Part shown: positions 2,279-64,000 of the stretch, one piece after another
Layout: each line of letters starts with the position of its first letter
How positions within the stretch are numbered: position 1 is the stretch's first letter
Origin: Thermoplasmatota archaeon
GTDB lineage: Archaea; Thermoplasmatota; E2; JACPAO01; JAHFTW01
Assembly: GCA_035526765.1 (NCBI GenBank)
Contig: DATLBS010000014.1
Span: 15,612-79,611, forward strand
Length of the DNA: 64,000 bases
Direction of reading: 5' to 3'
Notes under the pieces: generated by a model
What the model was told of the DNA's origin: nothing
Databases searched by the model: none
What the model saw: the letters and a program-made list of their open reading frames with translations, nothing else
Position numbers and translations under genes: made by a program

Positions 2279-4477
2279 ATGTCGCCGCGTCCCCTGGGGC
2301 TCCCTCGCGCAGCCTACTGGGCTTTCCTGTTCGTCTGCCTGCTGATCGGTGGGTCCATCGTGGCCATCGCCGACCACGTCCAGACCGAGAACGGCAAGGC
2401 CGTGAACTTCCACCACGGCACCGACGGCAATGAGTGGTGGGTCTCGGTCACCCTGTCCGGCACCGATGCCGGCACCGTCACGAAGGTCGAGGGCATGGAC
2501 ACGGGCGGCCCCTGGACGACCCTGGCCAAGCAGAGCTGGGGGGCTTACGCCGCCAGCTTCCACATCGAGCCGGGCCACCAGGTCCGCTTCCGCGCCACGT
2601 GGGGCAACGGCGTCGTGATCACCAGCTGCTGGTTCACGCACCCCGCCGGCGTGGAGCAGTGCGGCACCACGACAGGCACGACCACCTCCACCACGACCAG
2701 CACCACGACGACCCCGCCGCCCCCGCCCTCCGGCTGGCAGGTCGCCACGGTGGGCGAGGCCGGGACCGCCACGTACGGCGGCGACATGGCCATCGCGGAC
2801 ATCGACGGGGATGGCCGCCGCGACGTCGTGGTGGGACGCGGCAACGGCCTGCGCGCCTACGAGTGGACGGGCACCGCGTGGACGACGGAAGTCATCTCGG
2901 AGCGCCTCTTCGACGCCATCGCGGCGGGCGACGGCGACGTTGACGGCACCAGCGAGGTGTATGGTCTGGCCGTCGGCACGCCAGGCATGGACCTGCTGCA
3001 GTACCACAAGGTCAACGGCCTCTGGGTCGAGACCTTCGTGATGAAGCTCCAGGAACCGGTGGCTGGCGACATGACGATCGGCAACATCGACGGTGCCGCG
3101 GGCCCGGAACTGTACCTCGGGATGTACTACACCGAGTGCGACCCCGACCCGAACGTCCCCCTCTGCTCCTCCACCTCCCGGATCTACAAGGTGTGGCAAG
3201 ACACCGCATGGCGCTCCAGCATGATCGCGACACTGGCCGGCCACCTCGACTCGATGTGGATCGGCGACGGCGACAACGACGGCTCCTCCGAGCTGTACGT
3301 GGGCCACGGCACCCGGCACGCCGACCGCACCTCGCAGGTGAAGCTGGTCTCAGGCACGTGGCGGGTCGTCGGGTTCTCCGGCTCCGGCTCCGACTCCGGT
3401 TTCTCGCTGGTGGTGGTGGGCGACGGCGACCGCGACGGCCGCAACGAGGTCTACCAGGTCAACTACTACGGCGTCTTCCTGAAGCACTTCTACACCGCGG
3501 CCAACGGCTGGGACTACGACACCATGTTCGGCTTCAACGGCATGACGTCCCCCGAGGGGTACGAGGTGCACCCGACCAGCCTGTTCCTCGGCGATGCCGA
3601 CAACGATGGCGCCCAGGAGCTCTACATGGCCACGGACAATGGCGAGGTCTACCAGGTGCGCTGGAGCGGCTCCGCGTGGGTCGCGACCCGCATCGCGTAC
3701 CCCCAGGACCCTTACCGCGGCACGGGCGGCGCGGGTCTCCTCGTCGTGGGGGACGGCGACGGCGACGGGCGCCGCGAGGTCTACACCGCCATCTCGTTCT
3801 ACATGGCCAACACGGGCGAGGCCGGCGTGTCCCGCGTCTTCAAGGTCTTCCTGCCCCCCTCCGGCTTCGATGCCACCTTCAAGGGAGTGCGCGGCAACGA
3901 GTGGTGGGAGCAGGTCACGGTCACCACGACCGGTGGCACCCTGTCCAGGGTCGACATCCGCCTCAACGGCGGCGCCTGGCAGCCCCTCCAGAAGCAGTCC
4001 TGGGGCGGCTACGCGGCCAGCTACCGCGCCGTGCAGGGCACCATCGTGCAGTTCCGCGCCACCAGCACCACCGGCGCAACCGAACTCAGCGACTGCTACC
4101 GCTGGGTCCCGCCCTCGAACACGGACGCCACGAAGGTGACGTGCCCAGGCTCGACCGGCACCACCACGACCACCACGACGTCCACCACCGGGACCACGAC
4201 TGGAGCCTTCGACGCGACCTTCAGCGGCGTCTCCGGCAACGAGTGGTGGGTGCAGGCCACCGTCAAGGCGAACCAGCCCTTGCAGAAGGTGGAGGCGCGC
4301 ATCGACTGCGGCAGCACGTACCACCTCCTTGCGAAGCAGTCGTGGGGCGGATGGGCGGCAAGCTTCCACGTCCCCGACGGCTCCAAGGTGACGTTCCGCG
4401 CCACCTCGGGCACGGGTGCCACCGATTCCTCGGGCGGGTACATCTGGCCGGGCGCGACCCCCACGGGAGGATGCTGA
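2279..4477 (+). CDS. Membrane-anchored or secreted FG-GAP (integrin-alpha-like, Ca-binding DxDxDG) beta-propeller protein with three copies of a roughly 85-aa NEWW..QSWGG(Y/W)A beta-sandwich (putative carbohydrate-binding) domain and Thr/Pro-rich linkers
   Basis: ATG at 2279 precedes a hydrophobic signal/anchor (AYWAFLFVCLLIGGSIVAIA). FG-GAP-like loops: IADIDGDGRRDVVVG, VGDGDRDGRNEVY, LGDADNDGAQELY, VGDGDGDGRREVY. The domain FDATF.GV.GNEWW.QVTV...QSWGG.AAS..V..G..V.FRATS is present three times. Linkers TTTGTTTSTTTSTTTTPPPPP. Confidence 0.75.
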   Translation: MSPRPLGLPRAAYWAFLFVCLLIGGSIVAIADHVQTENGKAVNFHHGTDGNEWWVSVTLSGTDAGTVTKVEGMDTGGPWTTLAKQSWGAYAASFHIEPGHQVRFRATWGNGVVITSCWFTHPAGVEQCGTTTGTTTSTTTSTTTTPPPPPSGWQVATVGEAGTATYGGDMAIADIDGDGRRDVVVGRGNGLRAYEWTGTAWTTEVISERLFDAIAAGDGDVDGTSEVYGLAVGTPGMDLLQYHKVNGLWVETFVMKLQEPVAGDMTIGNIDGAAGPELYLGMYYTECDPDPNVPLCSSTSRIYKVWQDTAWRSSMIATLAGHLDSMWIGDGDNDGSSELYVGHGTRHADRTSQVKLVSGTWRVVGFSGSGSDSGFSLVVVGDGDRDGRNEVYQVNYYGVFLKHFYTAANGWDYDTMFGFNGMTSPEGYEVHPTSLFLGDADNDGAQELYMATDNGEVYQVRWSGSAWVATRIAYPQDPYRGTGGAGLLVVGDGDGDGRREVYTAISFYMANTGEAGVSRVFKVFLPPSGFDATFKGVRGNEWWEQVTVTTTGGTLSRVDIRLNGGAWQPLQKQSWGGYAASYRAVQGTIVQFRATSTTGATELSDCYRWVPPSNTDATKVTCPGSTGTTTTTTTSTTGTTTGAFDATFSGVSGNEWWVQATVKANQPLQKVEARIDCGSTYHLLAKQSWGGWAASFHVPDGSKVTFRATSGTGATDSSGGYIWPGATPTGGC

Positions 4478-4478
4478 C

Positions 4479-6674
4479 ATGGGACCCGCCAAGCTTGGCC
4501 AGACCCTGGGGGCCCTGGGCATCGTCGCCCTGCTGGCCCTCGTGACGCCCGCCCTCGCGAACCACACGCAGACCGACCTCGGAAAATCGATCAGCTTCGA
4601 CCACAAGACGGGCAACGCCTACTGGGTCGAGGTCACGATCGGCGGCGCTGACGCAGGACGCGTCACCAAGGTCGAGGCCCAGGTGGCGCCTCCCTCCAGC
4701 CACGGCTGGACCGTGCTGCCGAAGCAGAGCTGGGGCGCCTACGGCGGCAGCTTCCCTATCGGCACGGACGCCTACATCCGCTTCCGCGCCACCTTCACGG
4801 ACGGCGTGCAGGCGGTGTCGTGCTGGTTCGCGCACCCCGTGGGCACGGAGACCTGCTCCCATGCCCCGCCGCCCGGCAACTGGCGCTCGAGCCTCGTCGG
4901 TTCCGCCGGCCCCGGCTTCGGCGGCGAGTCCGTCGTGGTCGACGTCGACTTCGACGGTGTCGGCGAAGTGCTGGTGGCCTCGGAGGAGGCGGTCTACATG
5001 TTCGACCACACGGCGACGGGCTGGACCCGCAGCACCGCCTTCGCCAGTGGCCCGGACCAGGACTTCCGCCTCATCGCCGTGGGGACCACCGACAACGACG
5101 TCGTCCAGGAGGTCTACACCGTGGGCCGCCACTACGATGGGGAACGGTCCTACGACCGGCTCATGTGGCACCATTTCACCGGCGAGCGGTGGTCCAGCGA
5201 GGTCGTGTGGGACTTCCGCGGCGTAAGCGACATCCTGATCGGCAACATCGATGACGCGGGGGCAAGCGAGCTCCTGGTGGTCACCAACGACGGCTCCAAC
5301 AGCATCGTCTATAGCATCGAGCGCACGCCCGGGCAGTTCTTCTTCACGGAGATCGCACGCACGCCGCACGAGCTGCCCCTTGGCCGCGCCGCCGTGGGCG
5401 ACGCCGACCGGGACGGCGACCAGGAGCTGTACGTCCTGCACGGCCGCGACTCCGTGTTCACGACGGGCGTGCTGCGCGTCGACTGGACCGGGACCGGCTA
5501 CACCCAGGACTTCCTCTTCGAGGGGGACTATGGCACCGAGCTCAACGGCTTCGTGGCCGGCGACGGCGACAACGACGGCCTGCAGGAGCTGTACCTCCTC
5601 GACTCGGCGTTCTTCCCGGACGAGACCAGCACCCTGCACCGCTTCTCGATGCACGCGACGGGCTGGACGCACACCACGATCCCGCTCGGCAAGGGCCTCC
5701 ATTACGACCTTGAGCTGGGGGACGGCAACGGGGACGGGTTCAGCGAACTCTACTCCGGCACCCTGCAAGGCCACCTGGCGCAAGTGATGTGGAGCAGGAC
5801 CAGCTCGGCCTGGGTGGTGCGGGCGGTCTACCAGCTGGGCTCCGGCGAGTTCCTGCAGGATGTCTCCATCGGCGACACCGAGGGCGACGGCAGGCAGGAG
5901 GTGTACGGGCTCTCCTACGACGCCATCGTCGACGTGTGCTGCCCGACGACGCACCTCCACCGCTTCGCGCCGCTTGCCTCCACCACCACGACCAGCACCA
6001 GCGCCACGACGACCACCTCGGGCACGACGACCAGCGCCACGACGACGGGCACGGGCGGCTTCGACGCGACGTTCGAGGGAGTCCGCGGCAACGCCTGGTG
6101 GGAGCAGGTCACCGTCACGACGACGGGCGGCACCCTCTCCAAGGTGGACGTCCGCCTCAACGGCGGCGCCTGGCAACCCCTGCAGAAGCAGTCGTGGGGC
6201 GGCTACGCGGGGAGCTACCACGCCGTCCAGGGCACCATCGTCCAGTTCCGCGCCACGAGCGCCACGGGGGCCACCGACCTGAGCGGGTGCTACCGCTGGA
6301 TCTCGCCGTCGAACACGGATGCCGCAACCACTTCCTGTCCTGGCGGCGGAGGCACCACGACGACGTCCAGCACCTCGGCCTCGTCGACCACCAGCTCCGG
6401 CGGGTTCGACGCGACGTTCTCGGGCGTGCAGGGCAACGAGTGGTGGGTGCAGGCCACCGTGAAGGCCAACCAGGCCATCGCGGGCGTGGACGCGCGCGTC
6501 AACTGCGGCGCCTGGCAGGTGCTGGCCAAGCAGAGCTGGGGCGGCTGGGCTGCAAGCTTCCACGTGCCTGACGGCTCCAAGGTGGACTTCCGGGCCCGCA
6601 GCACGACGGGGACCCAGGACGTCTCGGGCGGCTACGTCTGGCCCTCCGCCACGCCAACGAGCGCGTGCCCATGA
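4479..6674 (+). CDS. Tandem paralog of the preceding gene: signal peptide, one NxWW beta-sandwich domain, FG-GAP repeats, Thr-rich linker, two more beta-sandwich domains
   Basis: Starts 2 nt after the upstream stop. Signal peptide MGPAKLGQTLGALGIVALLALVTPALA. Domains 2 and 3 are about 85-90% identical at protein level to the corresponding domains of the upstream gene. FG-GAP-like loops: VGDADRDGDQELY, AGDGDNDGLQELY, LGDGNGDGFSELY, IGDTEGDGRQEVY. Confidence 0.75.
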   Translation: MGPAKLGQTLGALGIVALLALVTPALANHTQTDLGKSISFDHKTGNAYWVEVTIGGADAGRVTKVEAQVAPPSSHGWTVLPKQSWGAYGGSFPIGTDAYIRFRATFTDGVQAVSCWFAHPVGTETCSHAPPPGNWRSSLVGSAGPGFGGESVVVDVDFDGVGEVLVASEEAVYMFDHTATGWTRSTAFASGPDQDFRLIAVGTTDNDVVQEVYTVGRHYDGERSYDRLMWHHFTGERWSSEVVWDFRGVSDILIGNIDDAGASELLVVTNDGSNSIVYSIERTPGQFFFTEIARTPHELPLGRAAVGDADRDGDQELYVLHGRDSVFTTGVLRVDWTGTGYTQDFLFEGDYGTELNGFVAGDGDNDGLQELYLLDSAFFPDETSTLHRFSMHATGWTHTTIPLGKGLHYDLELGDGNGDGFSELYSGTLQGHLAQVMWSRTSSAWVVRAVYQLGSGEFLQDVSIGDTEGDGRQEVYGLSYDAIVDVCCPTTHLHRFAPLASTTTTSTSATTTTSGTTTSATTTGTGGFDATFEGVRGNAWWEQVTVTTTGGTLSKVDVRLNGGAWQPLQKQSWGGYAGSYHAVQGTIVQFRATSATGATDLSGCYRWISPSNTDAATTSCPGGGGTTTTSSTSASSTTSSGGFDATFSGVQGNEWWVQATVKANQAIAGVDARVNCGAWQVLAKQSWGGWAASFHVPDGSKVDFRARSTTGTQDVSGGYVWPSATPTSACP

Positions 6675-8913: not shown

Positions 8914-9230
8914 GGGCGCTCCGCGTTCAATTCTGGATCATTGACGGTCCAACACCCCTGTGACGTGGGGCGGCGGGCACCAGAAAGATGCCGCCGAACC
9001 TTGCTAAGCAGCCATGTGCGGCCGCAGGCCGCACGACGCAGGGTGGCGACGGACCTTTCCGTCGGCGTGGAGCGCACGGCACCCGACTAGCCACGAACCC
9101 ACGGAGGACACGGAAGCATTGTTTGGGAGCATCCCCGGGGCTCCGTGGTTTCCGTGGCTGGCGGCGGCAGGCGCGCCTTCGGCGCGCCCCATTCCATCGC
9201 ACGCAACAACAAGAACCCCCAATCAGACCG
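8914..9230. repeat. Intergenic mosaic repeat: 'GCGCTCCGCGTTCAATTCTGGA...AACACCCCTGTGACG' module followed by a GC hairpin with CUUCGG loop and 'CAACAACAAGAACCCC' tail
   Basis: Related copies at about 33613-33800, 44822-44895 and 63843-63915. Hairpin GGCGCGCC-TTCG-GCGCGCC at about 9166-9186. Confidence 0.5.
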
Positions 9231-10927: not shown

Positions 10928-11001
10928 GCGGGCCTAGAGGGATTCGAACCCTCGTCGTCGGATTCGAAGTCCGACAGTATATCCAAGCTAGCCCATAGGC
11001 C
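10928..11001 (-). tRNA. tRNA-Arg (anticodon TCG), 74 nt, no encoded CCA
   Basis: Reverse complement reads GGGCCTATGGGCTAGCTTGGATATACTGTCGGACTTCGAATCCGACGACGAGGGTTCGAATCCCTCTAGGCCCG. 7-bp acceptor stem, T-arm GAGGG/TTCGAAT/CCCTC, anticodon arm TCGGA/CTTCGAA/TCCGA with anticodon TCG. The D-arm pairing is non-canonical in my hand fold. Confidence 0.7.
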
Positions 11002-11186
11002 CGTGCGGCTTGCGACTCAGGGGGCACGGAAAAGGTGGACGGCTCCAGGCGAACCGTCCTGGCATCCTCAGATTGCCCAGATTCTCCCAGACCGAACCTG
11101 GGTCATCTATGGAATCTGAGTCCGGTCGGGCGGCTCGCCAAAAAACAGGGAAGGGAGAAGGGGGGAAAGGAGGATCGTGGGGAGGA

Positions 11187-12499: not shown

Positions 12500-12809
12500 A
12501 GACGTGGGAGCCAGGAAGAGGGCCTTAGGCGTGTCGATGCGGTTGCACGGATCTTGCGGATGCAACCGCCAGGGCAGATAGGGTTAGGTCGCAAGACACG
12601 CCCCATCGCGTGTTGGTACAGGCTGCAATCCAACCGCCCCTCCGACGGCGGCGCGTACCACGGCCAGAACGCCCTCATGTTCCTGTTGTGGTGAGCGATG
12701 GAATTGGGGCGCGCGCAGCGCGCCCGCGAAGCCCCCAAAAGGCAGGGACTCTTGCTGACCTGAGCTGTCACCTGGGAATTTCTAAGTAACGGGGCATTGT
12801 CCGGAAAAC

Positions 12810-13340: not shown

Positions 13341-13805
13341 TTACTTCGCGCCCACGGCCTTCTTCAGTCGCTTCTTGTCGAGGCGGTACACCCACGTGTT
13401 CGGGTTGCCCTCCTCCTTCACGCGCAGCCCCAGCGTGCAGTCGCGGTGGTGGCTGAACTCGAAGAGGTCCGAGATGAACTGCGGCTTCTGCCGGGCCAGC
13501 ACCTTCGCCGCCTCCTCCTCGTACGTGTCGTAGTGGAAGGGGAACTTGACGCCGGTGGCGACGACCTTGATGCTGCCCCGGGTGGTGAGGCCCGTGATGC
13601 TGACCAGCTCCCCCGTCAGGATGCGCTTGTGCACGGACTCGCCCTTGGTGGGGTTGGGGAACCAGTGGTTGCACTCGATGCACAGCAGCTCGTTGACCTT
13701 CTCGAGCCCCTCGGTGTCCTCGTGGTCCTCGAGGACGCGGATGAGGACGCCGTCCTTGAAGGCCATGAACATGTCGATGGCGTTGCAGTTCGGGCAGGCG
13801 TACAT
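13341..13805 (-). CDS. Zn-ribbon protein, hypothetical
   Basis: CPNC..(33)..CIEC at the N-terminus. Positioned immediately downstream of the GYTLY/HhH gene, parallel to 34424-35155 in the radA locus. Confidence 0.5.
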   Translation of the reverse strand: MYACPNCNAIDMFMAFKDGVLIRVLEDHEDTEGLEKVNELLCIECNHWFPNPTKGESVHKRILTGELVSITGLTTRGSIKVVATGVKFPFHYDTYEEEAAKVLARQKPQFISDLFEFSHHRDCTLGLRVKEEGNPNTWVYRLDKKRLKKAVGAK

Positions 13806-13932: not shown

Positions 13933-15270
13933 CTACGACAAGGGATGCGGAGCCAGCTTCACGCGCCGCATCTTCTTGGCGGCCTTCTGCCACGTCGCGA
14001 CGCGCTGCGCGGTGAGGCGGGTCTTGATGACCGTCTGCCGCTGCTGGTCCAGCCACGTGTTGGTGGCCCCGACCAGCTCCTTCGGGTGGCGCGCCTTCAG
14101 CTCCTCGATGCCGTGCACGCCCGCGCGCGTGAGCGCCTCGGCGTACTGCGGGCCGATCCCCTTGACCTTCATCAGGTCGGCCATCTGCTGCCAGAACCGG
14201 ATGGTCTCCACCGCCTCCCCCATGCGGTGCGCCAGCGCCTCGGCGTCGCTGCGGCACAGCTCGTCCGTCGTCCGGACGCCGCAGCCCTCCAGCCTGGTGG
14301 CCCACATGGGCCCGATGCCCTCCACGTCCAGGACGGGGTGCGAGTCGCCCTTGTACCCGAACAGCGTGACCGCGTCCGCGGCCTTGGCGGAGCTCCCCTT
14401 GCGCAGGAACGGAAGCCCCGTGCGCTTGTTCACGCCCACCTCGTGCCCCTCGGGGAGGGCGGCCGGCTCGCCGGCCTTGGGAGAGCCCTTGCTGAAGAAG
14501 TAGAGGGGACGCGCCCCCGCCTTGCCCTCCACATCGCGCTTGTAGAGGGTGTACCCGTCGTGCGTGAAGGCGGCCGTCCTGGCCGGGGAGGGCTCCGGCT
14601 CCGCGGGAGCCAGCAGCGACTCGTCCAGCCGCACGGTCAGCCCGTCGTCACCCGCGGGGCCCCGCGGCGGCGTGGCACCTGCGGCTGGAGGCTCCGTGGC
14701 GAGGGCGGCGCCTCCGGGGCCTGCCCCTTGCACCGGCGTGCCCCCCTCCTGCTCCCGCGCCGCCAGGCAGCACTGGCAGGCCTCGCCGGGGCAGCAGCGC
14801 GCCACGTCGCAACCTGCGCGGCAGCAGCCCGTGGCCTCGCAGCACGCGGTGCAGCCGGCGTGGTCGCAGCAGTCGCCGCCCTCGCAGCAGCCGTCCGCGC
14901 AGCAGGCGCACTGGCCGCCGCGGGCCGCCTGCAGGCTCGCCGGGACGGAGCCGTCCTTGCCGGTGACCGCACCCAGCGCGTCCACCTCGTACTTGGAGGC
15001 GCAGATGGAGCAGTACACCGTGGCGGGCAGGGCCAGCCGGTAGAACTGCAGGTTCTGCAAGCAGCCGGTGCAGCGGAACGCGAGGCGGTCCTGCGCCGTC
15101 TCCACGAGGTGATGGCGCACGTGCCCGAAGACGCTGCGCTCGACCAGGACGGCGCCCAGGCGGGTGTTGGCCAGGACCTTGCCGGGACCGAGGGCGCGCC
15201 CGTTGAGGACGGGGTTGCCCGGCATCTCGCGGTCCAGGTGCTCGGTGGCCCAGTCGGGGAGTGCCGTCAT
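13933..15270 (-). CDS. Multi-domain nucleic-acid-binding protein: Zn ribbon, Cys-rich cluster (roughly 25 Cys in 55 aa), conserved GYTLY-YFF-RTGLPFL module, C-terminal tandem HhH (DUF4332-like)
   Basis: C-x2-C-x17-C-x2-C. CACCADGCCEGGDCCDHAGCTACCEATGCCRAGCDVARCC. FTHDGYTLYKRDVEGKAGARPLYFFSKGSPKAGEPAALPEGHEVGVNKRTGLPFLRK. VEGIGPMWATRLEGCGVRTTDEL.. and VKGIGPQYAEALTRAGVHGIEEL. Confidence 0.65.
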   Translation of the reverse strand: MTALPDWATEHLDREMPGNPVLNGRALGPGKVLANTRLGAVLVERSVFGHVRHHLVETAQDRLAFRCTGCLQNLQFYRLALPATVYCSICASKYEVDALGAVTGKDGSVPASLQAARGGQCACCADGCCEGGDCCDHAGCTACCEATGCCRAGCDVARCCPGEACQCCLAAREQEGGTPVQGAGPGGAALATEPPAAGATPPRGPAGDDGLTVRLDESLLAPAEPEPSPARTAAFTHDGYTLYKRDVEGKAGARPLYFFSKGSPKAGEPAALPEGHEVGVNKRTGLPFLRKGSSAKAADAVTLFGYKGDSHPVLDVEGIGPMWATRLEGCGVRTTDELCRSDAEALAHRMGEAVETIRFWQQMADLMKVKGIGPQYAEALTRAGVHGIEELKARHPKELVGATNTWLDQQRQTVIKTRLTAQRVATWQKAAKKMRRVKLAPHPLS

Positions 15271-15355
15271 CGGGGCGGGGACCCGCCCGGTGGGTTAGAC
15301 CGTTTCGTTGGGTCCGATGGGGTCCGATGGGGGGTCGGGGGTGGACTCGCCTGGC

Positions 15356-16093
15356 CTAGGCCGTCGCGCTCTTGCGGCGCACCGACGGCTTGGTGTCGGC
15401 GGCCTCGGGGACGCGGGGCTTGGTGTCCTCGCGGTTGGCGGCCGCCTTGGCGATGGCGGGCGGCTGGTACCCGAAGTGGCTGCTGCAGTACTTGCTCTCC
15501 GCGCGGGCGGAGTTGCGGCACTGGTGCCCCTCGTCGGTGAGGGCGGAGCACTGCGGGCGGTAGGCCTGCACCAGGTTCGGGGTGAGGTCCTCGCCGTCGG
15601 CGCCCGTGCCCTTCTTCAGGAACGGGAGGCCGGTGCGCTCGTTGACGCCGACGTGGTAGCCGGCCGGCTTGGCGGCCATGGCGCCGGACTTCGGGGTGTG
15701 CTTGGCGAAGAAGTAGATGGTGCGGTGGCCGCCGTTCTTGAGGTCGACGTCGCGGCTGTAGAGCGTGTAGCCCTCGTACGTGAAGGGGAACGGCTCGGCC
15801 TGGTCCTGCGGGACGGGCGCCACCAGCTCGGGCAGCGGCGCGATGGTCTCCGTGAAGGGGAGGGGCGCGGGGCGCTCCGCGACCTCGAAGGACTCGCGCA
15901 CGGTCACGGTGCGCGGCCAGGAGGCCGCCATGCTCAGGATGACCATGAGGACGATGACGAAGGCCCAGCCGACGAACAGGGGCCACATCAGCTTCGAGCC
16001 GTCGAAGGAGTAGTCAAGCAGCGACAGCATCAGGAACAGGACGTTGGCGCCTAGGCCGGCCATCAGAAGGCCGCGGGTGGTGGTGTGGTTCAT
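15356..16093 (-). CDS. Membrane protein (2 TM) with cytoplasmic GYTLY-YFF-RTGLPFL module and C-terminal Cys cluster
   Basis: Start MNHTTTRGLLMAGLGANVLFLMLSLL. FTYEGYTLYSRDVDLKNGGHRTIYFFAKHTPKSGAMAAKPAGYHVGVNERTGLPFLKK. QCSALTDEGHQCRN..YCSSH. Confidence 0.6.
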   Translation of the reverse strand: MNHTTTRGLLMAGLGANVLFLMLSLLDYSFDGSKLMWPLFVGWAFVIVLMVILSMAASWPRTVTVRESFEVAERPAPLPFTETIAPLPELVAPVPQDQAEPFPFTYEGYTLYSRDVDLKNGGHRTIYFFAKHTPKSGAMAAKPAGYHVGVNERTGLPFLKKGTGADGEDLTPNLVQAYRPQCSALTDEGHQCRNSARAESKYCSSHFGYQPPAIAKAAANREDTKPRVPEAADTKPSVRRKSATA

Positions 16094-33612: not shown

Positions 33613-33860
33613 GCTCCGCGTTCGGTTCTGGGCCGATTCGGGGACTTCCTCCCGTGTGGCTGGCGGCGGGGGCGCGTTCGTGAAGCAAGATGGTTCCTAG
33701 TGGGCGGAGCCCACAGCCCCGTGACCACTCGGTGGGTTTCGGCGGGCGCGCTTCGCGCGCCCCAGGCCATTCGCTCGTGACAACAAGAACCCCAAACCGT
33801 GCTGGCCGTGCCACGCGCCGCCGTCGGAGAGGCGGTTGGACTGGAGCCTGCACCAACACG
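33613..33860. repeat. Mosaic intergenic repeat (degenerate GCTCCGCGTTC..GGCGGCGGGGGCG module, GGCGCGC-TTCG-CGCGCC hairpin, CAACAAGAACCCC, then GTGCTGGCCGTGCCACGCGCCGCCGTCGGAG..ACCAACACGCGATG module)
   Basis: Shares segments with 8914-9230 and 44822-44970. Confidence 0.5.
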
Positions 33861-33959
33861 CGATGGGTCGCTGCCGTTTCTGTGCCTTCAGCGGATGACC
33901 AGAAGCGGGATCCTTCGCATCTGGGGAATCTGTGGAACGGCAGGGGCCAAAAACCAGCC

Positions 33960-34373
33960 CTACTTGTCGACCAATTGTTCCTGCAGCGTGATGACCATCT
34001 CGGTCAGCAGGTCCTCGAAGACCGTGTTCTTGTATTCCTTGTCGGCGCCGCCCTCGGTCTGGGTGCGCGCGATGAAGAAGTGGCCGTCCTTGACAATCTC
34101 GATCTGGCACAGCGTGTCGCGGCCGGGGACCTTGACCAGGCCCTGCTTGGGGAGCATGGGGGCCGCCTCGCCGCCCTCCACCGGGACGCCAGGCTTGGGC
34201 ATCGGCTTGGCAGGCATCGCGCCCTTCGAGGGGGAGGCGGAGGGGGACGGCTTGGCGGAGGGGGCCTTGGGGGACGGCCTGGCCTGGGGGGGCGCGGGCT
34301 TGGCGGCCGGCTTCGGGGCGGCCTTGGGTGCGCTCTTCTTCGCAGGGGCGGCGGTCTTCTTCGCGGTGGCCAT
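33960..34373 (-). CDS. Hypothetical protein with Ala/Lys/Pro-rich N-terminal tail and conserved-looking C-terminal domain
   Basis: MATAKKTAAPAKKSAPKAAPKPAAKPAPP... C-terminal LCQIEIVKDGHFFIARTQ...VFEDLLTEMVITLQEQLVDK. Confidence 0.5.
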   Translation of the reverse strand: MATAKKTAAPAKKSAPKAAPKPAAKPAPPQARPSPKAPSAKPSPSASPSKGAMPAKPMPKPGVPVEGGEAAPMLPKQGLVKVPGRDTLCQIEIVKDGHFFIARTQTEGGADKEYKNTVFEDLLTEMVITLQEQLVDK

Positions 34374-34423: not shown

Positions 34424-35155
34424 CTAGGCGCGGCGGGGACGCATGGGGCCCGGGCGCTTGTCCTTGTTGCGGGGCGCCGACTGGCCCTTGGGTGCGCCGC
34501 GGCGGCGGACCTTCGCCTTGTGCCCCGGCTTCGAGCCCTTGGGCGCGAGGTCGGCAAAGACGCGGCGGACGTTGCGGGCCAGCAGGAAGCCGCGGTGGAG
34601 GGTGCGGTTCTGGTCGGACTTGAGGGTCTTCACCACCAGGTTGATGCCCTGCACCTCCCGCACGTAGCCGACGTGGATCTCCTCCTCGGGCTCGGCCTCT
34701 TCCTGGAAGCTTCGGGTGAGGTCGCCCTCGTTGACGGTGTAGCGGAGGCGGACCGTGTCGAACAGGACGGCGTACACCATCTTGATGTCCCGGCCGGGCA
34801 GGCTCTTCGGGCGGCTGCCATCGCGTTTCTCGACGGCTGTGATGCGTACGCGGTGCCCCTCGACCTCGGTCTCGGCGTCCACCTGCACGGGGTCGTCCAG
34901 CGGGACCTCGATCTGCACGGTGCGGGCGGCGGCCCCCTCGCTGAGGATCACGGGAACCGTCACCATGCGCTGCTTGCGGGGAGCGGCCACGGTCTGCTTG
35001 GTGTGGCATTCCAGGCACTCGACGGTCCATCCAGACTCGGCGGCGCGCAGGACGGCATGGTCCTCGACGCGGCCGCACGTGGGGCACTCGAGGAAGACGG
35101 GCTCCTCGCCCTCCTCGATGTCCTCCGAGCCATCGTCCCAGCCGGTCTCGCCCAT
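34424..35155 (-). CDS. Zn-ribbon protein with acidic N-terminus and basic C-terminal tail
   Basis: CPTCG..(17)..CLEC. Downstream of the GYTLY gene and radA on the same strand. Confidence 0.5.
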   Translation of the reverse strand: MGETGWDDGSEDIEEGEEPVFLECPTCGRVEDHAVLRAAESGWTVECLECHTKQTVAAPRKQRMVTVPVILSEGAAARTVQIEVPLDDPVQVDAETEVEGHRVRITAVEKRDGSRPKSLPGRDIKMVYAVLFDTVRLRYTVNEGDLTRSFQEEAEPEEEIHVGYVREVQGINLVVKTLKSDQNRTLHRGFLLARNVRRVFADLAPKGSKPGHKAKVRRRGAPKGQSAPRNKDKRPGPMRPRRA

Positions 35156-35258: not shown

Positions 35259-35444
35259 CTACAGTTTCTTCAGGTAAGGCAGGCCCGTGCGCTTGTTCTC
35301 GGCGAGCGCGTAGCCGGCGGGCATCTCGACGGGGATGCCGCTCTGGGGACGCCGCTGGCTGAAGAAGTAGATGACCTGCTTGTGGCCGCCCTTGAGCGCC
35401 ACCTCACGGGCGTGCAGGGTGTACCCGTTGTGCGTGAAGGCCAT
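35259..35444 (-). CDS. Stand-alone GYTLY-YFF-RTGLPYL module protein (roughly 61 aa)
   Basis: MAFTHNGYTLHAREVALKGGHKQVIYFFSQRRPQSGIPVEMPAGYALAENKRTGLPYLKKL. Confidence 0.5.
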   Translation of the reverse strand: MAFTHNGYTLHAREVALKGGHKQVIYFFSQRRPQSGIPVEMPAGYALAENKRTGLPYLKKL

Positions 35445-35579: not shown

Positions 35580-36629
35580 CTAGACCGCGTCTCGGATGCC
35601 GTCTTCCGTCACATTGACCACGGCCTCGCCCTCGGGCAGGTGCGGGGAGTCGACGAGACGGCAGATGCGCTTCCCGCCCTTCGACTTGCGGAGGTAGATG
35701 CGGAACGTGCTGGTGTGGCCCACGATGTGGCCGCCGATGGGGCGGGTGGGGTCGCCGAAGAAGGCATCCGGCTTGGCGGAGACCTGGTTCGTGACGATGA
35801 CGGCCGCGTTGTTGATGCCGCCCAGCCGCTGCAGGTCGTGCATGTGCCGGTTGAGCTTCTGCTGGCGGTCGGCCAGGGTGCCACGGCCCACGAACTCGGC
35901 GCGGAAGTGCGCGGTCAGGGAGTCGACCACGATGAGCTTGATGGGGAAGTCGCGGCAGATCTCCTGGGCGCGCTCGGCCAGCAGCATCTGGTGGTTGGAG
36001 TTGAAGGCGCGCGCGACATGGATCTTCTTCAGGGCTTCCTGGGGGTCCATGCCCATGGCGTTGGCCATCTGGGTGATGCGCTCGGGGCGGAACGTGTTCT
36101 CGGTGTCGATGTAGAGCGCGTGCCCGTTCAGGCCGCCTTCCGCCTCGGGGCGCTGCACGTTGACGGCCAGCTGCATGGCGAACTGGGTCTTGCAGGAGCC
36201 GAACTCGCCGTAGAACTCGGTGATGGACTGGGTCTCGATGCCGCCGCCCATCAGTTCGTCGAAGGCCTTGCTGCCGGTGCCGATCTTGTTGACGGTCTTG
36301 CGGCGCTCGGCCACTTCCAGGCCTGTCTCGAAGCCACCGACGTCGGCCAGCTTGCGGGCCGCGTTGATGATCTTCTGCGCCACGCCTTCGCCGATGTCGC
36401 ACTTCTCGGCGATGTCGCCAGGGGACGCGACGGCGATGGCCATGAGGTCCTCGTAGCCGGCCTCCTTCAGCTTGTCCGCCGTGGCAGGGCCGACGCCGGG
36501 GAGGTCCTCCACCGTCATGCGGATGTGGCCTTCCTTCTTCGGGTCCGCTCGCGCGGCGCTCAGCTCGTTGTCGAAGGTTGCGTCGTAGTCCTCTTCCATG
36601 GCAACCGGGGTTCCGTTCTTCTTGGCCAT
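35580..36629 (-). CDS. radA: DNA repair and recombination protein RadA
   Basis: N-terminal HhH ([23 protein letters not shown]). Walker [10 protein letters not shown], Walker [16 protein letters not shown]. Full RecA fold. Confidence 0.9.
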
Positions 36630-36766
36630 TCGTGGCACCAAGCCCACAAGGCCTGGCCCGCTAGTTAGGCAGGAGGGGCCGGACAGATGAAACTACTCGT
36701 CCGAGGGCTGGCTGGCGCGCGCTGGAGCTGGCCGCCAAGCCCTACCGCCGGCTTTCCTGCACGCGG

Positions 36767-39700
36767 CTACCGCTGGGACTCGTGCTCGCGGATGATCGCG
36801 TCGATGGCCTTGGGGTCGTAGCCGCGCGGCCTGGGAAGCGCCAACGACACGGGCCTGGCAGGGGCCTTCGCCTTGGCCGCCTTCGCCTTGGCGGGACGCG
36901 CCTTGGGGGGCGCATGCCCGGGCTTTCGCGCCTGCGCGGTCGCGGCCGGGGCTTCCCATGGCTCCGCGTCCGATTCCCCGGCCGCAACGCTGGTGTCCCG
37001 GGTTGCGGTCCCGAAGGCGTCCTGCGCGTCGGCGGCCCGCCCTGCCGGCTCCGAGGCCGGAGCGGACGCAGTCGCCTCACGTGCCTCGCGCGCCAACCGC
37101 TTCTCTTCCGCCAGGCGCATCTTCTCCGCCTGCTTCAGCTCGGCGGCGTGCCGCTTCGCAGCCTCCCGCTCCGCGGCCACCCTCTGCTTCTCGGCGGCGG
37201 CGCGTTCCCTCTCTTCGCGGGCACGGACCTGCGCGGCGGCCTTCTCCTCGGCGGCGCGCTGCTTTCCGGCCAACCGCTCCGCCAGAAGCCGCTCCTTCTC
37301 CGCCTGCCGGGCTGCCTTGGCGTCCCGCACGGGCGTCACGGCCTCCTGGAACTCGTGGATGGGGGCCTCGGCGGCCGCGGTCGCGGCAGGGGCGTCGTCC
37401 TCGCCGGCCGGCGCTGCGACCTCGCGGGCCGCCTTCTCCTGCTCGCGCCGCCGGCGCTCGTCCTCCTTGGCCTGCAGGGCCTGGGCCTTCGCCTGGGCAC
37501 GCGCCTCGATCTGGCGGGCCTTCTCGGCCTCCCGCTCGGCGGCCCCTCGCGCCTTCTCCTGCGCGGCGCGTTCCCGGGCCGCTTGGGCCTCCTGGCGCGC
37601 CCGCTCCTTGGCCTGCGCGACGCGCATCTTCTCGGTGGCCTTCTCCTCGGCCTCTCGGGCCCTGGCCGCCTCCTTCTCGGCGGCGGCGCGCTCCTTCTCC
37701 GCCTGCCGCTCGGCGGCCAAGCGCGCCTTCTCGGCCTCGGCCTGCTGCTGCGCACGGGCCTTCTCCTTCTCGGCCTTCAGCTTGGCAGCGGCTTCCGCCT
37801 TCTCCTCCCGTTCCCGCTGCTTGGCGATGCGCGCCTCCTCGCGCAGCCGCGCCTTCTCCTGCTTGGGATCGACCGGCCTGGGTTCGCGCTTCAGCAGCTT
37901 CCCCAATGAGAACCCGCCTTCCTTCGCGGGTCCCGCATCGGCCGTGGTCTCCTCCTTCTTGCCGCGCCTGCCTTTTGGGGCCTCGGCCAACTCAAGTGCA
38001 GGCTCCTCGGCCTGCCGTTTGGCGGCGAGTCTTGCCTCGCGGGCGGCGGCCTTCTCCTCCTCCTTGCGCTCGGCCGCGGCTTGCTTCTCCTCGGCGGCGC
38101 GTTGCTTGGCGACTTCCTTCGCACGGGCGGCCGCTTCCTTCTCGGCAGCCTTGCGGGCCTTCGCGTCCCCTTGCGGTGCCGACCCTTCGGTTGCGTCGGA
38201 GGTGCGCTTGAAACGGGAAAGGAACGACCCTGTGCGTTCCTCGGTGGCTGGCCCGGGGACCTCTTCGGCCTGTTTGCCTGCCCTGCCTTTCTTCGCGGGC
38301 AAGGACTCGATGGGTTCCGCCTCGCGGGGCTCCTCCTTGCGCTTGAGCCGGGACAAGAACGAGCCCTTGGGTTCCTCGTGGGCTGGTTCTACCGCCGGCG
38401 TGGGTTCGGCCTGTTTGCCTGCCGTGCCTTTCTTGGAGGGGGCTTCCTCGATGGCCGGCTCGGCGGTTGCCTCCTTGGGCTTCAGGCGTGACAGGAAGGA
38501 CCCCTTGGGCTCCCCTGGAGCGGGGTCCTGTTCGGCCGGGGGCTCCCGGGCTGCTGCCTTGCCCTTCTTCGCAGGCTTCTCCGGCGTGGCGGGCGCTTCC
38601 TCGGTCGCTTCTGCACCTACCTTGGCAGGCTTGCCGGCCTTCTTGGCGGCACGCTCGTCCTCGATGAGCTTCTGCTTCTCAACCTTCCGCAGCGCCGCTT
38701 CCTCGCGGGCTTTGCGCTGCGACTCCTTGCGGGCCTTGCGCTCCTCCTCCTTCTCGCGGCGCTGCTCCTCCCGCAGGGTGCGGCGGTCGGTGCCGGAGCC
38801 CAGGTCGACCTCGGGGGCAGCCTCGGTTGCGATGACCTCCTCCACGATGCGGAAGCCGGCGGACGTGGTGTACGCGCGCCCGGGCTGGTGGCCGAAGGCA
38901 TAGAGCCGCTCGGCGTCGGACTTCTCGTCCTCGGGCAGCTTCACGAAGGGGCTGCGGCCGTCGGCCAGGCGGGGGGCCTGGTGGCCCTTGCGCTCGTCCT
39001 CGGGCAGTTTGGCGAAGGCGCTGGACCCATCGGGCAGGCGGGGCTTCTCCCGCTCCAGGTGGTCCTCCGGCAGCTTGGCGAAGAGGCTGCTGCCATCGAT
39101 GAGGCGCGGCGGCGCCTTGGAGATCTCCTTCTTGGCCGGCTTGGAGGTGGCCTCCGCGAAGCCCTCCTTGCGGGCGACGATGGACTGCTCCCAGATGCCG
39201 CCCTCGCCGGTGGCCTGCGGGATCTTCTGCGCCACGGCCTCCGACCAGATGCCCTTCGGCTGGCTGCCCTCGCGCGCGGCGTCGCGGGCGCGGCGCTCCT
39301 CCTCTTTCTTGAGCCGGGCATCTTCCTTGGCCTTCTCCTTCTCTTCTTCGGAGCGGCGCTTGGCCTCCGCGGCCTCGGCCTTCGCCCTGGCCTTCAGGTC
39401 CGCCTTCGTCGGCTCGGCCGAGGCAGCAACGGCGGGAGCGTCCTTGGCGTCCTTCGCCGCCTGTTTCTCGGCCAGCATGCGTTCCTTCTCCGCCTTCCTG
39501 GCGGCCTTGGCATCCAGGGGGGCGTCGACCGCGGCAGGGGCGGGCGCAGGGGGTTCCTTGCCGGACTTCGCAGCCTTCTTGGCTTCCTTGGCGGCCAGTC
39601 TCTCGGCCTTGGCGCGTTCCTTCTCCGCCACCTTGGCCTGCTTCGCAGCCAGCTTCGCGGCCTTGGCTTGTTCCTTCTGGGCGAGCTTCTCGGCCTTGGC

Positions 39701-41461
39701 GGCCGCCTTGGGGTCCGGCACGTCGGCCGCCGCTGGCGTGGGCGGAGTGGGGGGCGCGAGGGGCGCGGCTGGCGCTTCCGTCTGCAGCTTCCCCTTGGTC
39801 CTGCGCAGTTCCTGCTGGACCTTCACGTCGGCGGTGCGGACGCTTCCACCCAGGATCGCCTGCGCGTCCGCGACCCACGCGGCCGCCGTCGCGTCGTCCT
39901 GGCCTGCCGCCTTGGCCACCAGGGCCAAGTCCGCCGCGGCCAGGGTCTGGAGCGTGAGGATCCCCTTCTTGCCAAGCTTCTTGGCCTGAGCCGGCCCGAT
40001 CCCCTTCACGTCGGTGACCGGGCGTTCGTGGGGCGTCGCGCTGCCGCTGGCCCCTTGGGACATGGTCGCGGCGGGTGCGGCAGCCGTTTGCGTGGCTTGC
40101 CTGATTTCCAGGGCCGACAGTTTGGCGCGGGCCATCGCCTCCTTCTCCTCCTGCCTGCGTTGCTGGGCGGCCTCTTTCTCGGCCTGCTTGGCGCGGCGTG
40201 CCTCCTCTTTTGCGGCGGCGGCCGCCTGGGCCTCCTGCTCGGCAAGCTGGCGTTTGGCCTCCTTCTCGGCCTTCGCGTTCGCCACGGCGATGCGCTTCTC
40301 TTCCTCGCGGGCCGCCTTGGCGGCGGCCTTCTCGGCAAGGGCGGCCTCTTTCTCACGCTGCTTCTGCGCCTTGGCCTCTGCCTTCAGGTCGGGCAGGGGG
40401 GCAGCGGGGGGTGCCTCAAGGACCGGTTGAGGTTCAGCGGTGGGCGGTGCGGCCTTGGCGGCGGCCTTCGCTGCGCGCTCGGCCTCCTTGGCCTGCTGCG
40501 CTGCCTGCTTCGCACGTGCGGCCTCCTCCGCGGCGGCCGCCTTGGCCAGCCGCTTCTGTTCCCTGGCATCCAGCGCGGGTGCGGCCGCGGCGGCGCCGGC
40601 TGGGGCCGGGGCATCGTCGCGGGCCAGGCCCAGCAACGACTTGCATTTTGGACAGGTGGCCTGCGTCGCGTCGGCGGCGACTGGGAACACGGTCCGGCAG
40701 TTGGCGCACTCGACGGTCTCGCCGCCGGGCGCCGCCTTGGCCGCCTTCGCGAGGCGCTTCTGCTCGGCCGCGCGCTCCCTGGCCGCCTTCTTCTCGGCGG
40801 CCGCGGCCTTGGCAGCGGCCTCCTTCCCGCGCCGCGCCGCCTCCTTCGCGGCGGCTGCCTGCGCCTTTGCGTCGTCCTTGGCCGGGGCGGCCGGGGCGCC
40901 AGCCTCGGACGGGGCGGGGGAGGCCGCGGCCTTGGCGGCGTCGGCGCCGCGCCTCGCTTCCTCCTTCTGGCGCTCGCGGGCCTCGGCGGCGGCCAGCTTG
41001 GCGGCGGCCTTCTCGGCCTTGGCGGCTTCCTTCGCCCGAGCCTTCCCTTCCGCAGCCTGCTTCTTGGCCTCCAGCCGGGCCCTGGCGGCTGCGGCCTTGT
41101 CGTCGGGATCTGCCTGGCTGGCTTCGGCCGCTGCCCTGGGCTTGCGGCGGAACAGTCCCGCCTTCTCGCGGGGGGGCTCGTGCAGCTCGACCTTCGGCGC
41201 GGCGGGCTCCTTGCGGCGGAAGCGGTGCAGGAACCCGCGCTCGGCCTCCTTCACGGCTTCCTTGGCAAGCTGCTTGTCGTCGAGGTCGGCCTTCTCGACG
41301 AACTGGATCTGCTCCTCCTCGTCCTGGTCGACCGCGGGCTCGGGCAGTCCCTGGACCTTCCGCAGGGCCCGGATCCCCACGTCGTCCGCCTTGGGGCGTG
41401 GGGTCCTGCCAGGCTTGCGGGAGGTCTTGGCGGGCTTGGACGGCTGGGTCTTGCGGGCCAC
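36767..41461 (-). CDS. Giant (roughly 1565 aa) Ala/Lys/Glu/Arg-rich (single-alpha-helix-like ER/K) protein with Zn ribbon, HhH motif and internal tandem peptide repeats
   Basis: Putative GTG start at 41461, with a GGAG 10 nt upstream and a CTTTATCTAT TATA-like box 45 nt upstream. Zn ribbon CANCRTVFPV...CPKCKS. HhH VTDVKGIGPAQAKKLGKKGILTLQTLAAADL. 3x DGSS.FAKLPED and 3x KGSFLSRLK.K repeats. Long AKEAAKAEKAA..-type low-complexity helices. Overlapping plus-strand ORFs are antisense shadows. Confidence 0.7.
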   Translation of the reverse strand: MARKTQPSKPAKTSRKPGRTPRPKADDVGIRALRKVQGLPEPAVDQDEEEQIQFVEKADLDDKQLAKEAVKEAERGFLHRFRRKEPAAPKVELHEPPREKAGLFRRKPRAAAEASQADPDDKAAAARARLEAKKQAAEGKARAKEAAKAEKAAAKLAAAEARERQKEEARRGADAAKAAASPAPSEAGAPAAPAKDDAKAQAAAAKEAARRGKEAAAKAAAAEKKAARERAAEQKRLAKAAKAAPGGETVECANCRTVFPVAADATQATCPKCKSLLGLARDDAPAPAGAAAAAPALDAREQKRLAKAAAAEEAARAKQAAQQAKEAERAAKAAAKAAPPTAEPQPVLEAPPAAPLPDLKAEAKAQKQREKEAALAEKAAAKAAREEEKRIAVANAKAEKEAKRQLAEQEAQAAAAAKEEARRAKQAEKEAAQQRRQEEKEAMARAKLSALEIRQATQTAAAPAATMSQGASGSATPHERPVTDVKGIGPAQAKKLGKKGILTLQTLAAADLALVAKAAGQDDATAAAWVADAQAILGGSVRTADVKVQQELRRTKGKLQTEAPAAPLAPPTPPTPAAADVPDPKAAAKAEKLAQKEQAKAAKLAAKQAKVAEKERAKAERLAAKEAKKAAKSGKEPPAPAPAAVDAPLDAKAARKAEKERMLAEKQAAKDAKDAPAVAASAEPTKADLKARAKAEAAEAKRRSEEEKEKAKEDARLKKEEERRARDAAREGSQPKGIWSEAVAQKIPQATGEGGIWEQSIVARKEGFAEATSKPAKKEISKAPPRLIDGSSLFAKLPEDHLEREKPRLPDGSSAFAKLPEDERKGHQAPRLADGRSPFVKLPEDEKSDAERLYAFGHQPGRAYTTSAGFRIVEEVIATEAAPEVDLGSGTDRRTLREEQRREKEEERKARKESQRKAREEAALRKVEKQKLIEDERAAKKAGKPAKVGAEATEEAPATPEKPAKKGKAAAREPPAEQDPAPGEPKGSFLSRLKPKEATAEPAIEEAPSKKGTAGKQAEPTPAVEPAHEEPKGSFLSRLKRKEEPREAEPIESLPAKKGRAGKQAEEVPGPATEERTGSFLSRFKRTSDATEGSAPQGDAKARKAAEKEAAARAKEVAKQRAAEEKQAAAERKEEEKAAAREARLAAKRQAEEPALELAEAPKGRRGKKEETTADAGPAKEGGFSLGKLLKREPRPVDPKQEKARLREEARIAKQREREEKAEAAAKLKAEKEKARAQQQAEAEKARLAAERQAEKERAAAEKEAARAREAEEKATEKMRVAQAKERARQEAQAARERAAQEKARGAAEREAEKARQIEARAQAKAQALQAKEDERRRREQEKAAREVAAPAGEDDAPAATAAAEAPIHEFQEAVTPVRDAKAARQAEKERLLAERLAGKQRAAEEKAAAQVRAREERERAAAEKQRVAAEREAAKRHAAELKQAEKMRLAEEKRLAREAREATASAPASEPAGRAADAQDAFGTATRDTSVAAGESDAEPWEAPAATAQARKPGHAPPKARPAKAKAAKAKAPARPVSLALPRPRGYDPKAIDAIIREHESQR

Positions 41462-41505
41462 GTTGATTCGTCCACTCCAGGAGGCACGCGGCACACCCGA
41501 GGGAC

Positions 41506-41515
41506 ATAGATAAAG
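41506..41515 (-). promoter_or_regulatory. TATA-like box (CTTTATCTAT on minus strand) for the giant gene, in a divergent intergenic region shared with polB
   Basis: It is the only AT-rich octamer in a GC-rich spacer, and its position relative to the GTG start is appropriate. Confidence 0.3.
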
Positions 41516-41732
41516 GATATCTGGAAGCCTGGAAGCCGGGACGGTCGGATGGCCGCACTGCGCAGGCGCGCCCGTTTGGGGTAGCCACGGAGCGCACGGA
41601 AAACACGGAGGGCTTCGCTGTCGTGCGCAGGCCACGCTCCGTGGACTCCGTTCCCTCCGTGGCTTGCCGTGACCATGGAACATCCTGGCCGTTGGCCCAA
41701 ACCCCTAAGCCCGTCGGCCAACTCGCCGCGGC

Positions 41733-44772: not shown

Positions 44773-44970
44773 GAACCACAGATTCCACGGATTTCACAGA
44801 CCCATGTTCTCAGGCCGTCATGCGCTCCGCGTTCAATTCTGGACCGATTCCAGTCCAACACCCCTGTGACGGCGGGGGCGTCGAACACCAGAAGCGAGCC
44901 GTGCTGGCCGTGCCACGCGCCGCCGTCGGAGGCGCCGGTAAACCAGAGCCTGTACCAACACGCGATGCCC
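44773..44970. repeat. Composite intergenic repeat 3' of polB: CACAGAT-array module, then GCGCTCCGCGTTCAATTCTGGA module, then GTGCTGGCCGTGCCACGCG module
   Basis: Shares modules with 21791, 63800-63915, 8914 and 33613-33860. Confidence 0.55.
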
Positions 44971-63915: not shown

Positions 63916-64000
63916 GATCCCTTGTGGTTGCGCGGAGCGCACGGACCCGTGGCTCTGACAGTGTCGGCGGGCGCGCTTGTGACCTTGCTCGCGTGCGCTC

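Follow-up and report, generated by a model that had tools for sequence, protein, structure and literature searches.

Archaeal lineages package and repair their DNA with differing small proteins, such as histones, Alba, Sul7d, Cren7, HTa and MC1. The view of archaeal chromatin has shifted with each new family discovered, and some of the families have become tools, for example in the Sso7d-fused polymerases. Sul7d (Sso7d/Sac7d) and Cren7 are about 60 residues long, mostly beta, strongly basic, lineage-restricted and very conserved, and are encoded by several near-identical gene copies. Genes for Sso7d/Sac7d and for archaeal histones are multi-copy, while archaeal ribosomal protein genes usually are not. 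Here we describe a protein module that occurs three times in a 64-kb stretch of DNA from a Thermoplasmatota archaeon (contig DATLBS010000014.1, positions 15,612 to 79,611), hereafter called the window. The module is a compact, basic, all-beta domain of about 58-60 residues that was previously unnamed. We give about an even chance to the reading that it is a new nucleic-acid binder, most likely of DNA and without strict sequence specificity, and that its free form would be nucleoid-associated or accessory to the recombinase RadA.

The three module copies are all on the minus strand, in three proteins that a sequence-only reading of the window had singled out. The open reading frames (ORFs) and the module peptides were present as described there, and so were the characters given to the proteins, namely a Zn-ribbon/Cys-cluster/helix-hairpin-helix (HhH) protein (ORF1), a protein with two transmembrane (TM) segments (ORF2) and a stand-alone 61-aa protein adjoining radA:

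14398-14568, minus strand: module copy 1, aa 235-291 of ORF1
15611-15784, minus strand: module copy 2, aa 104-161 of ORF2
35265-35438, minus strand: module copy 3, aa 3-60 of the stand-alone protein
13933-15270, minus strand: ORF1, 445 aa; N-terminal domain, Zn-ribbon, Cys-rich cluster, P/A-rich linker, module, DUF4332/tandem HhH
15356-16093, minus strand: ORF2, 245 aa; two TM segments, linker, module, CCCH knuckle, basic tail
35259-35444, minus strand: stand-alone 61-aa family member (ORF plus match to a hidden Markov model (HMM), E 9e-37)

When the three module peptides were aligned, 25 positions were invariant, and the second and third copies were 60% and 50% identical to the first. An HMM built from the three copies and run against the six-frame translation of the whole window matched exactly those three places (E 1e-37 to 3e-41); no fourth copy was found, and the next best match had E = 1. 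Since the HMM retrieved only the three places, the similarity between the copies reflects homology and neither chance nor low complexity.

The check proposed with the sequence-only reading, a search of Pfam and of archaeal genomes, gave no match in Pfam and a large family in archaeal genomes. A word-indexed protein search returned 442 homologues, mostly of 61-62 aa. Nearly all of the best 120 of these were 61-62 aa long or were over-called versions of the same gene; they were named 'hypothetical', and the organisms given were Thermoplasmata or Thermoplasmatota metagenome-assembled genomes (MAGs). An exhaustive profile search of 1.84 billion representatives yielded 882 clusters at 50% identity, 447 of them with E <= 1e-10, and a scan of one genome per GTDB species confirmed 308 loci, of which 80 genomic loci were kept and form the basis of all locus counts given here. 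Apart from a few records with generic or clearly wrong titles, the 80 loci belonged to Thermoplasmatota-type MAGs, and no cultivated organism was seen among the carriers found. Several family members or neighbours were in records titled Petrotogales bacterium, Acidimicrobiaceae bacterium, 'bacterium' or Halobacteriales (P0036, P0298, L003, L006, L010). These are probably mis-binned or mislabelled MAG contigs, as they carry the genes of the same Thermoplasmatota clade (radA, L15e, CPxCG cluster). With the exception of three bacterial records, probably mislabelled, all organism names referred to uncultivated Thermoplasmatota MAGs.

The commonest form of the family is the 61-aa stand-alone protein, with the consensus MAYTHEGW/YTLYxRxVxLKGGxxQTIYFFSKRxPKSGxPxxxPxGYxVGVNKRTGLPYLKK. 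The median net charge was +7 for stand-alone and +6 for fused copies, with an isoelectric point (pI) of about 9.9; the stand-alone copy of the window has a pI of 10.1 and a net charge of +6. The pI of the window RadA is 6.1, which argues that the proteome of the host is not generally basic. Positions conserved in both stand-alone and fused copies comprise TL, LKGG, IYFFSK, PKSG, GY and VNKRTGLPYLKK. Because the two forms share these positions and are both basic, it is likely that they share one activity. Nine of the sampled MAGs contributed two or three stand-alone loci each. For a protein so short, conservation is extreme. In an AT-rich clade, copies from five distinct contexts were 80-95% identical, and two copies from a single MAG (L028 and L033) were about 82% identical. 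Two to three copies per genome together with strong purifying selection at essentially all positions represent the pattern of a dosage-sensitive and probably abundant protein.

The module did not correspond to any named domain that we searched for, as the sequence-only reading had supposed, nor did it map to a well-characterised domain of unrelated function. In Pfam-A 2025, the 61-aa protein had no family at E <= 1, and a search with 67 members at E <= 10 gave just five sporadic families, each in one or two members. The module was also unmatched in NCBIfam 20.0, PHROGs v4 and PADLOC 2.0, and a profile search of PDB chain sequences gave one chance-level match (uS17, E = 1). An AlphaFold2 model of the stand-alone copy of the window, based on a 67-sequence alignment, was all-beta with a mean pLDDT of 96 and a pTM of 0.79. 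The main predicted strands, at residues 8-16, 22-29, 45-49 and 56-60, form a long hairpin and a short hairpin. A Foldseek comparison of the model with the PDB gave no significant match (best E 0.69). The sole structural neighbour was A0A8S5TRK4 in BFVD, with a TM-score of 0.77, a root-mean-square deviation of 2.6 Å over 68 columns and E 2.5e-3; this uncharacterised 78-aa protein of Siphoviridae sp. ct1SN28 is 20% identical to the module, at a borderline E-value. In the strand at residues 22-29, both the I25/F27 and the Y26/F28 faces were at least 90% conserved, and conserved aromatic residues would thus lie on an exposed face, a feature of many nucleic-acid binders.

Several candidate identities were rejected. 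Two hairpins are predicted, as in a zinc ribbon, but there are no conserved Cys/His pairs, and the invariant and near-invariant columns contain no Cys. An archaeal ribosomal protein did not fit either, given the lack of a Pfam ribosomal family, the uS17 match at chance level, the multiple copies and the frequent fusions. Three short motifs were judged by eye. A PIP-box in 'QxIYFF' has the wrong spacing and falls in a predicted beta strand; an HbYX motif at the C-terminus would have its Tyr at the wrong position; and a mimic of the FxxA motif of RadA polymerisation has no Ala at the fourth position.

Fused arrangements were read from the best 150 representatives, and Pfam partners were determined in 97 fused representatives. 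Besides occurring alone, the module was found between a 2-TM anchor and a CCCH knuckle (ORF2 type; at least nine N-terminal and 23 C-terminal flanks), after a 4-TM anchor, where it is sometimes doubled (16), between a Zn-ribbon plus Cys-cluster N-terminal domain and DUF4332 (ORF1 type; 19), and, in soluble proteins 300-830 aa long, at the very C-terminus. Most long fusions have 0-1 residues after the 'LKK' of the module, and tandem double modules occur. The dominant fusion partners were HhH-type domains, so the association with DNA-binding partners in the window is a general one. HHH_5 was present in 25 of the 97 fused representatives and HHH_2 in 13, DUF7898, which overlaps HhH stretches, in 10, DUF4332 in four and DUF2188 in four; zf-TRM13_CCCH was present in 10. 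The long fused proteins carry up to four HHH_5 units and low-complexity linkers, with the module at the end. One representative (P0159) joins the module to a recombination endonuclease VII domain (E 2.3e-21), and another (P0184) joins a Lrp/AsnC ligand-binding (RAM) domain to the module and has no helix-turn-helix (HTH) domain. The P0184 gene is close to an aminotransferase gene, a neighbourhood that is typical of Lrp-type regulators.

In the window, the gene of the stand-alone protein lies between radA, upstream on the same strand at a distance of 135 nt, and the gene of a zinc-finger protein:

35580-36647, minus strand: radA, Rad51/RadA recombinase with N-terminal HhH (PF08423 E 3.6e-88; HHH_5 E 2e-10)
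34424-35155, minus strand: CPxCG-related zinc-finger protein, named 'HVO_0476 family zinc finger protein' by NCBI (PF19769 E 1.8e-33)
35006-35086, minus strand: Zn-ribbon of the CPxCG protein

The RadA assignment is supported by a PF08423 score of 295 bits at aa 115-354 and by HHH_5 at aa 46-99. To compare neighbourhoods, ORFs were called and clustered in the 80 loci and the recurrent families were annotated with Pfam. The gene of the stand-alone protein (small) was found in five recurrent contexts:

Context A, the clade of the window (22 loci): radA > small > CPxCG_zf (HVO_0476 family) > A/K/P-rich 135-aa protein, with L15e on the opposite strand
Context B (about 20 loci): radA > small > NAD-kinase-like > class I/II aminotransferase (KBL-like)
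Context C (about 10 loci): Dph5 < small > RNase P Rpp21 > S19e > PDCD5-like dsDNA-binding protein > L39e > L31e
Context D (11 loci): TM protein > DUF5678 > retropepsin-like aspartyl protease > small
Context E (about 10 loci): another conserved gene set

In 35 of the 80 loci, radA lies on the strand of the small gene and ends at most about 200 nt upstream of it. In three more loci radA was within 1 kb, in one it was rearranged, and four had too little upstream sequence. RadA of the linked loci was 62-99% identical to RadA of the window. From clade to clade, different genes precede radA and follow the small gene, which indicates that the radA-small pair persisted in a changing neighbourhood. Gene calls made independently for other contigs gave spacers of 35 nt and 32 nt in the radA-small-CPxCG run. 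The link to radA noticed in the window is thus a real and deep association, although for only one paralogue per genome, and together with the HhH/DUF4332 link it extends far beyond the window. In L081-L085, two radA paralogues in tandem lie directly upstream of the small gene, one of 325 aa and one of 459 aa with additional HhH matches (for example at 3525-4502 and 4587-5966 in L081). In the context D loci (L044, L049, L050, L054, L056, L065-L068, L070 and L077), the small gene always follows its three-gene set on the same strand.

A further proposal of the sequence-only reading, that each module locus is followed by a Zn-ribbon gene, held for the window in that both downstream genes begin with CxxC...CxxC; it did not hold as a property of the module. 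The two downstream proteins are not homologous (BLASTP E 0.16, over the Cys motif only), and only clade A (22 of 80 loci) has a CPxCG gene after the small gene, with a NAD-kinase-like gene or a ribosomal protein operon in its place elsewhere. The link to a downstream Zn-ribbon gene is lineage-specific synteny and incidental.

The DNA-binding reading is favoured because the module is a basic beta domain joined most often to HhH domains, and in other proteins to a zinc knuckle, to a DNA nuclease of the junction type or to a ligand sensor that normally depends on a DNA-binding partner, and because of the radA linkage and the constraint on its multiple copies. At the level at which it was offered, the nucleic-acid-transaction role suggested earlier gains support from the radA synteny and from the HhH, endonuclease VII and RAM fusions. 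The evidence on function is entirely comparative, and from it we infer nucleic-acid binding, a high cellular abundance, co-transcription with radA and a functional link to RadA. The stand-alone form would be a strongly conserved nucleoid-associated protein, of which at least nine of the sampled MAGs have two to three copies. Co-expression with radA is probable for one of the stand-alone copies, which may aid or modulate recombination by RadA. The fused form would be a portable DNA-contact module. In ORF1-type proteins it may add affinity to the HhH/DUF4332 arrays, in ORF2-type proteins it may tether DNA to membrane-anchored proteins, and in the nuclease or ligand-sensing regulator fusions it could supply the DNA-binding part. 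A more far-reaching version, in which the 61-aa protein would be the main protein of the nucleoid or chromatin in a large uncultivated Thermoplasmatota branch, with a new DNA-binding fold analogous to Sul7d/Cren7 of Crenarchaeota or HTa of Thermoplasmatales, the radA-linked copy a lineage-specific recombination mediator acting with RadA, and the fused forms tethers of DNA to membrane proteins and HhH scaffolds, is possible, though we regard it as rather doubtful.

Several observations weigh against the DNA-binding reading. No radA was nearby in 37 of the 80 loci, and no decisive operon, promoter or terminator signal was seen between radA and the small gene in the window. The endonuclease VII and RAM fusions are each represented by a single cluster, and for endonuclease VII the known sources are just two contigs, 543 and 671 nt long. 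In many fusions the partner is a membrane anchor (25 flanks) or an amino-acid permease, with no obvious tie to DNA. A conserved basic or aromatic surface of the module is a presumption. Literature searches on Thermoplasmatota chromatin proteins, DUF4332, CPxCG/radA, MBG-D/HhH, HVO_0476 and the motif strings gave nothing relevant, and no experiment or solved structure was found for any family member. Furthermore, the HhH association would be explained equally well if the partners of the module were HhH-containing proteins, of which RadA is one, and not DNA, and one paralogue heads the Rpp21-S19e-PDCD5-L39e-L31e operon, which fits a role in RNA or translation equally well.

Such a role, with the module as a small RNA chaperone or a ribosome- or RNase P-associated protein, appears unlikely. 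It would explain why the small gene lies directly upstream, on the same strand, of the Rpp21, S19e, PDCD5-like, L39e and L31e genes in about 10 loci, and it agrees with the position of the window copies near L15e and of the ORF1 locus of relatives near S3Ae. The CCCH knuckle of the ORF2 type corresponds to the zinc finger of TRM13, a tRNA methyltransferase, and the family is small, basic and very conserved, as ribosomal proteins are. However, the profile search of the PDB included archaeal ribosomes and gave the match at E = 1 alone, there was no match to a ribosomal family in Pfam, and two to three near-identical copies as well as fusions to HhH arrays, membrane anchors and a DNA nuclease would be unusual for ribosomal proteins. 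The HhH and DUF4332 partners are typical DNA binders, and the strongest synteny is that with radA. Similarly improbable in our judgement is a pure protein-interaction module, which would dock onto HhH domains or RadA, or oligomerise, and recruit its carriers without contacting nucleic acid. By Rosetta-stone logic, a module that is fused to HHH_5 and encoded beside RadA, which has an N-terminal HHH_5, could bind that domain; docking modules are often found at the extreme C-terminus, where the module lies in most long fusions, and the tandem copies and the conservation of nearly every position, likely including those on the surface, would fit multiple protein contacts. On the other hand, a positive charge so strong and conserved is met more typically in proteins that bind nucleic acids, and both the replacement of the HTH in the RAM protein and the endonuclease VII fusion call for a part that contacts DNA. 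The stand-alone loci unlinked to radA also speak against docking onto RadA, as does the conserved 'F/Y-T-H-x-G' start, in which no FxxA-type RadA-binding motif was seen by eye.

The presence of the module at several loci could also be due to the spread of mobile DNA, with a mobile-element, viral or defence role, an explanation that is largely refuted and that we consider very improbable. It was raised by the several copies per genome in different contexts, by context D with its DUF5678 and retropepsin-like genes, by the fusion to endonuclease VII, a domain that is common in viruses, by the siphovirus protein as the only structural match, and by a dispersed repeat near both window loci. However, the module and its neighbours had no matches in PHROGs or PADLOC, no relative of the module was found on 2.9 million viral contigs, and the neighbours are housekeeping genes in stable synteny (radA, ribosomal proteins, enolase, S3Ae). 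The dispersed repeat is absent from the related loci and is also present elsewhere in the window.

The remaining features of the ORF1/ORF2 locus of the window are as follows:

15001-15072, minus strand: Zn-ribbon of ORF1, CxxC...CxxC
14767-14910, minus strand: Cys cluster of ORF1, aa 121-168
13972-14322, minus strand: DUF4332/tandem HhH of ORF1
aa 8-26 and 35-59 of ORF2: TM segments, hydrophobic and transmembrane-like
15476-15550, minus strand: CCCH knuckle of ORF2, TRM13 type
13341-13805, minus strand: 154-aa N-terminal Zn-ribbon protein, downstream of ORF1

The C-terminal DUF4332/HHH_5 region of ORF1 had a Pfam E of 1.4e-18. Residues 317-433 passed the gathering score of DUF4332 (PF14229) with 67.7 bits (cut-off 23.2), and the C-terminal part passed that of HHH_5 (PF14520) with 42.5 bits (cut-off 27). 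Full-length ORF1 orthologues were 58-77% identical and unchanged in Pfam content. An amino-acid permease with a C-terminal HhH/DUF4332 extension was also among the ORF1 homologues. The Cys cluster, between the Zn-ribbon and the module, has 20 Cys in 48 residues, mostly as CC pairs (CACCADGCCEGGDCCDHAGCTACCEATGCC...CQCC), and looks metallothionein-like or metal-cluster-like; at least one orthologue (P0278) has it in a shorter form. The ATG start of ORF2 at 16093 is supported by relatives that were called at 253-255 aa. Three related gene maps had the same order as the window, enolase < TSP3-repeat protein > ORF2 type (253-255 aa) > ORF1 type > 154-aa Zn-ribbon protein > ... S3Ae, and the ORF2 orthologue was directly upstream of the ORF1 type in L088/L089; a fourth relative had different downstream genes. 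The 154-aa Zn-ribbon protein differed from its L088 orthologue (L088 7356-7820) at only 8 of 154 positions, whereas ORF1 was only about 60% identical between the same two organisms. It had no family in Pfam, NCBIfam, PHROGs or PADLOC and, from this comparison, is an unusually constrained unknown protein.

Further genes and elements near the radA locus and elsewhere in the window are:

33960-34373, minus strand: 137-aa protein, basic A/K/P-rich N-terminal tail and conserved C-terminal domain of about 65 aa, pI 9.7; fourth gene of the radA-small-CPxCG cluster
36767-41683, minus strand: 1638-aa protein with long A/K/E-rich low-complexity regions, directly upstream of radA
10928-11002, minus strand: tRNA-Arg (TCG), the sole tRNA or Rfam-recognised RNA in the window
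12590-12740, plus strand, and 33734-33870, minus strand: full copies of a dispersed, GC-rich repeat of about 135 nt, near both module loci and inverted

A model of the CPxCG protein (pLDDT 85), made for a functional clue to the operon, had no significant fold match in the PDB, and HVO_0476 was not mentioned in the literature searched. The 137-aa protein was matched by tblastn downstream of the CPxCG gene in 22 of the 80 loci, and its orthologue had no Pfam family. The 1638-aa protein contains one HHH_5 (aa 555-608) and a Zn-ribbon (aa 324-348) and lacks the module, and its design resembles that of the HhH-array proteins that end in the module elsewhere. The surroundings of the radA cluster in the window, with the A/K/P-rich protein and the large HhH protein, are other basic or HhH proteins and were counted in favour of a DNA role. 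The two full copies of the repeat are about 80-85% identical and fold moderately well (z = -2.3), and partial copies lie near 44900-44967, 9165-9222 and 63929-63978. That the repeat might be a tRNA or non-coding RNA tied to the module was considered and rejected, as the tRNA and Rfam searches gave no match and every related locus lacks it; the element is an intergenic repeat specific to this genome, possibly like a miniature inverted-repeat transposable element, outside the module system.

Nearly 900 sequence clusters of the module are without a name in current domain libraries, and the carriers known so far are from metagenomes. If the module does bind DNA, it would be a candidate nucleoid or recombination accessory protein for these Thermoplasmatota and a candidate new DNA-binding fold, and hundreds of 'hypothetical' proteins would gain an immediate annotation. 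If it does not, the conserved linkage to radA would still flag a partner of the archaeal recombinase.

Compared to known systems, the neighbours and partners of the module, namely RadA, HHH_5/DUF4332 and PF19769, are ordinary members of their families. The PF19769/HVO_0476 zinc finger, of which the window neighbour is a clear member that lacks the module, is itself uncharacterised; it joins the radA-small-CPxCG cluster in the clade of the window and is unlinked to the module outside that clade. The HhH/DUF4332 (H3TH-like) domains, present in ORF1 and RadA and the commonest partners of the module, would likewise be portable, repeated and probably sequence-independent DNA-contact modules, but they are all-alpha whereas the module is all-beta, and the two are unrelated in sequence. 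As functional analogues we propose the Crenarchaeota chromatin proteins Sul7d and Cren7, with which the family shares a small size (about 7 kDa), a basic character, restriction to a lineage and multiple gene copies. It does not belong to either, as there was no match to PF02294 or PF11520 and no Sso7d/Sac7d or Cren7 chain among the Foldseek matches in the PDB. The predicted topology of two beta hairpins and short strands without a C-terminal helix differs from that of Sul7d and Cren7 and, unlike them, the module is very often fused into multidomain proteins. By this comparison, the module would represent a new family of a functional kind already known, that of small, basic archaeal modules that bind nucleic acids.

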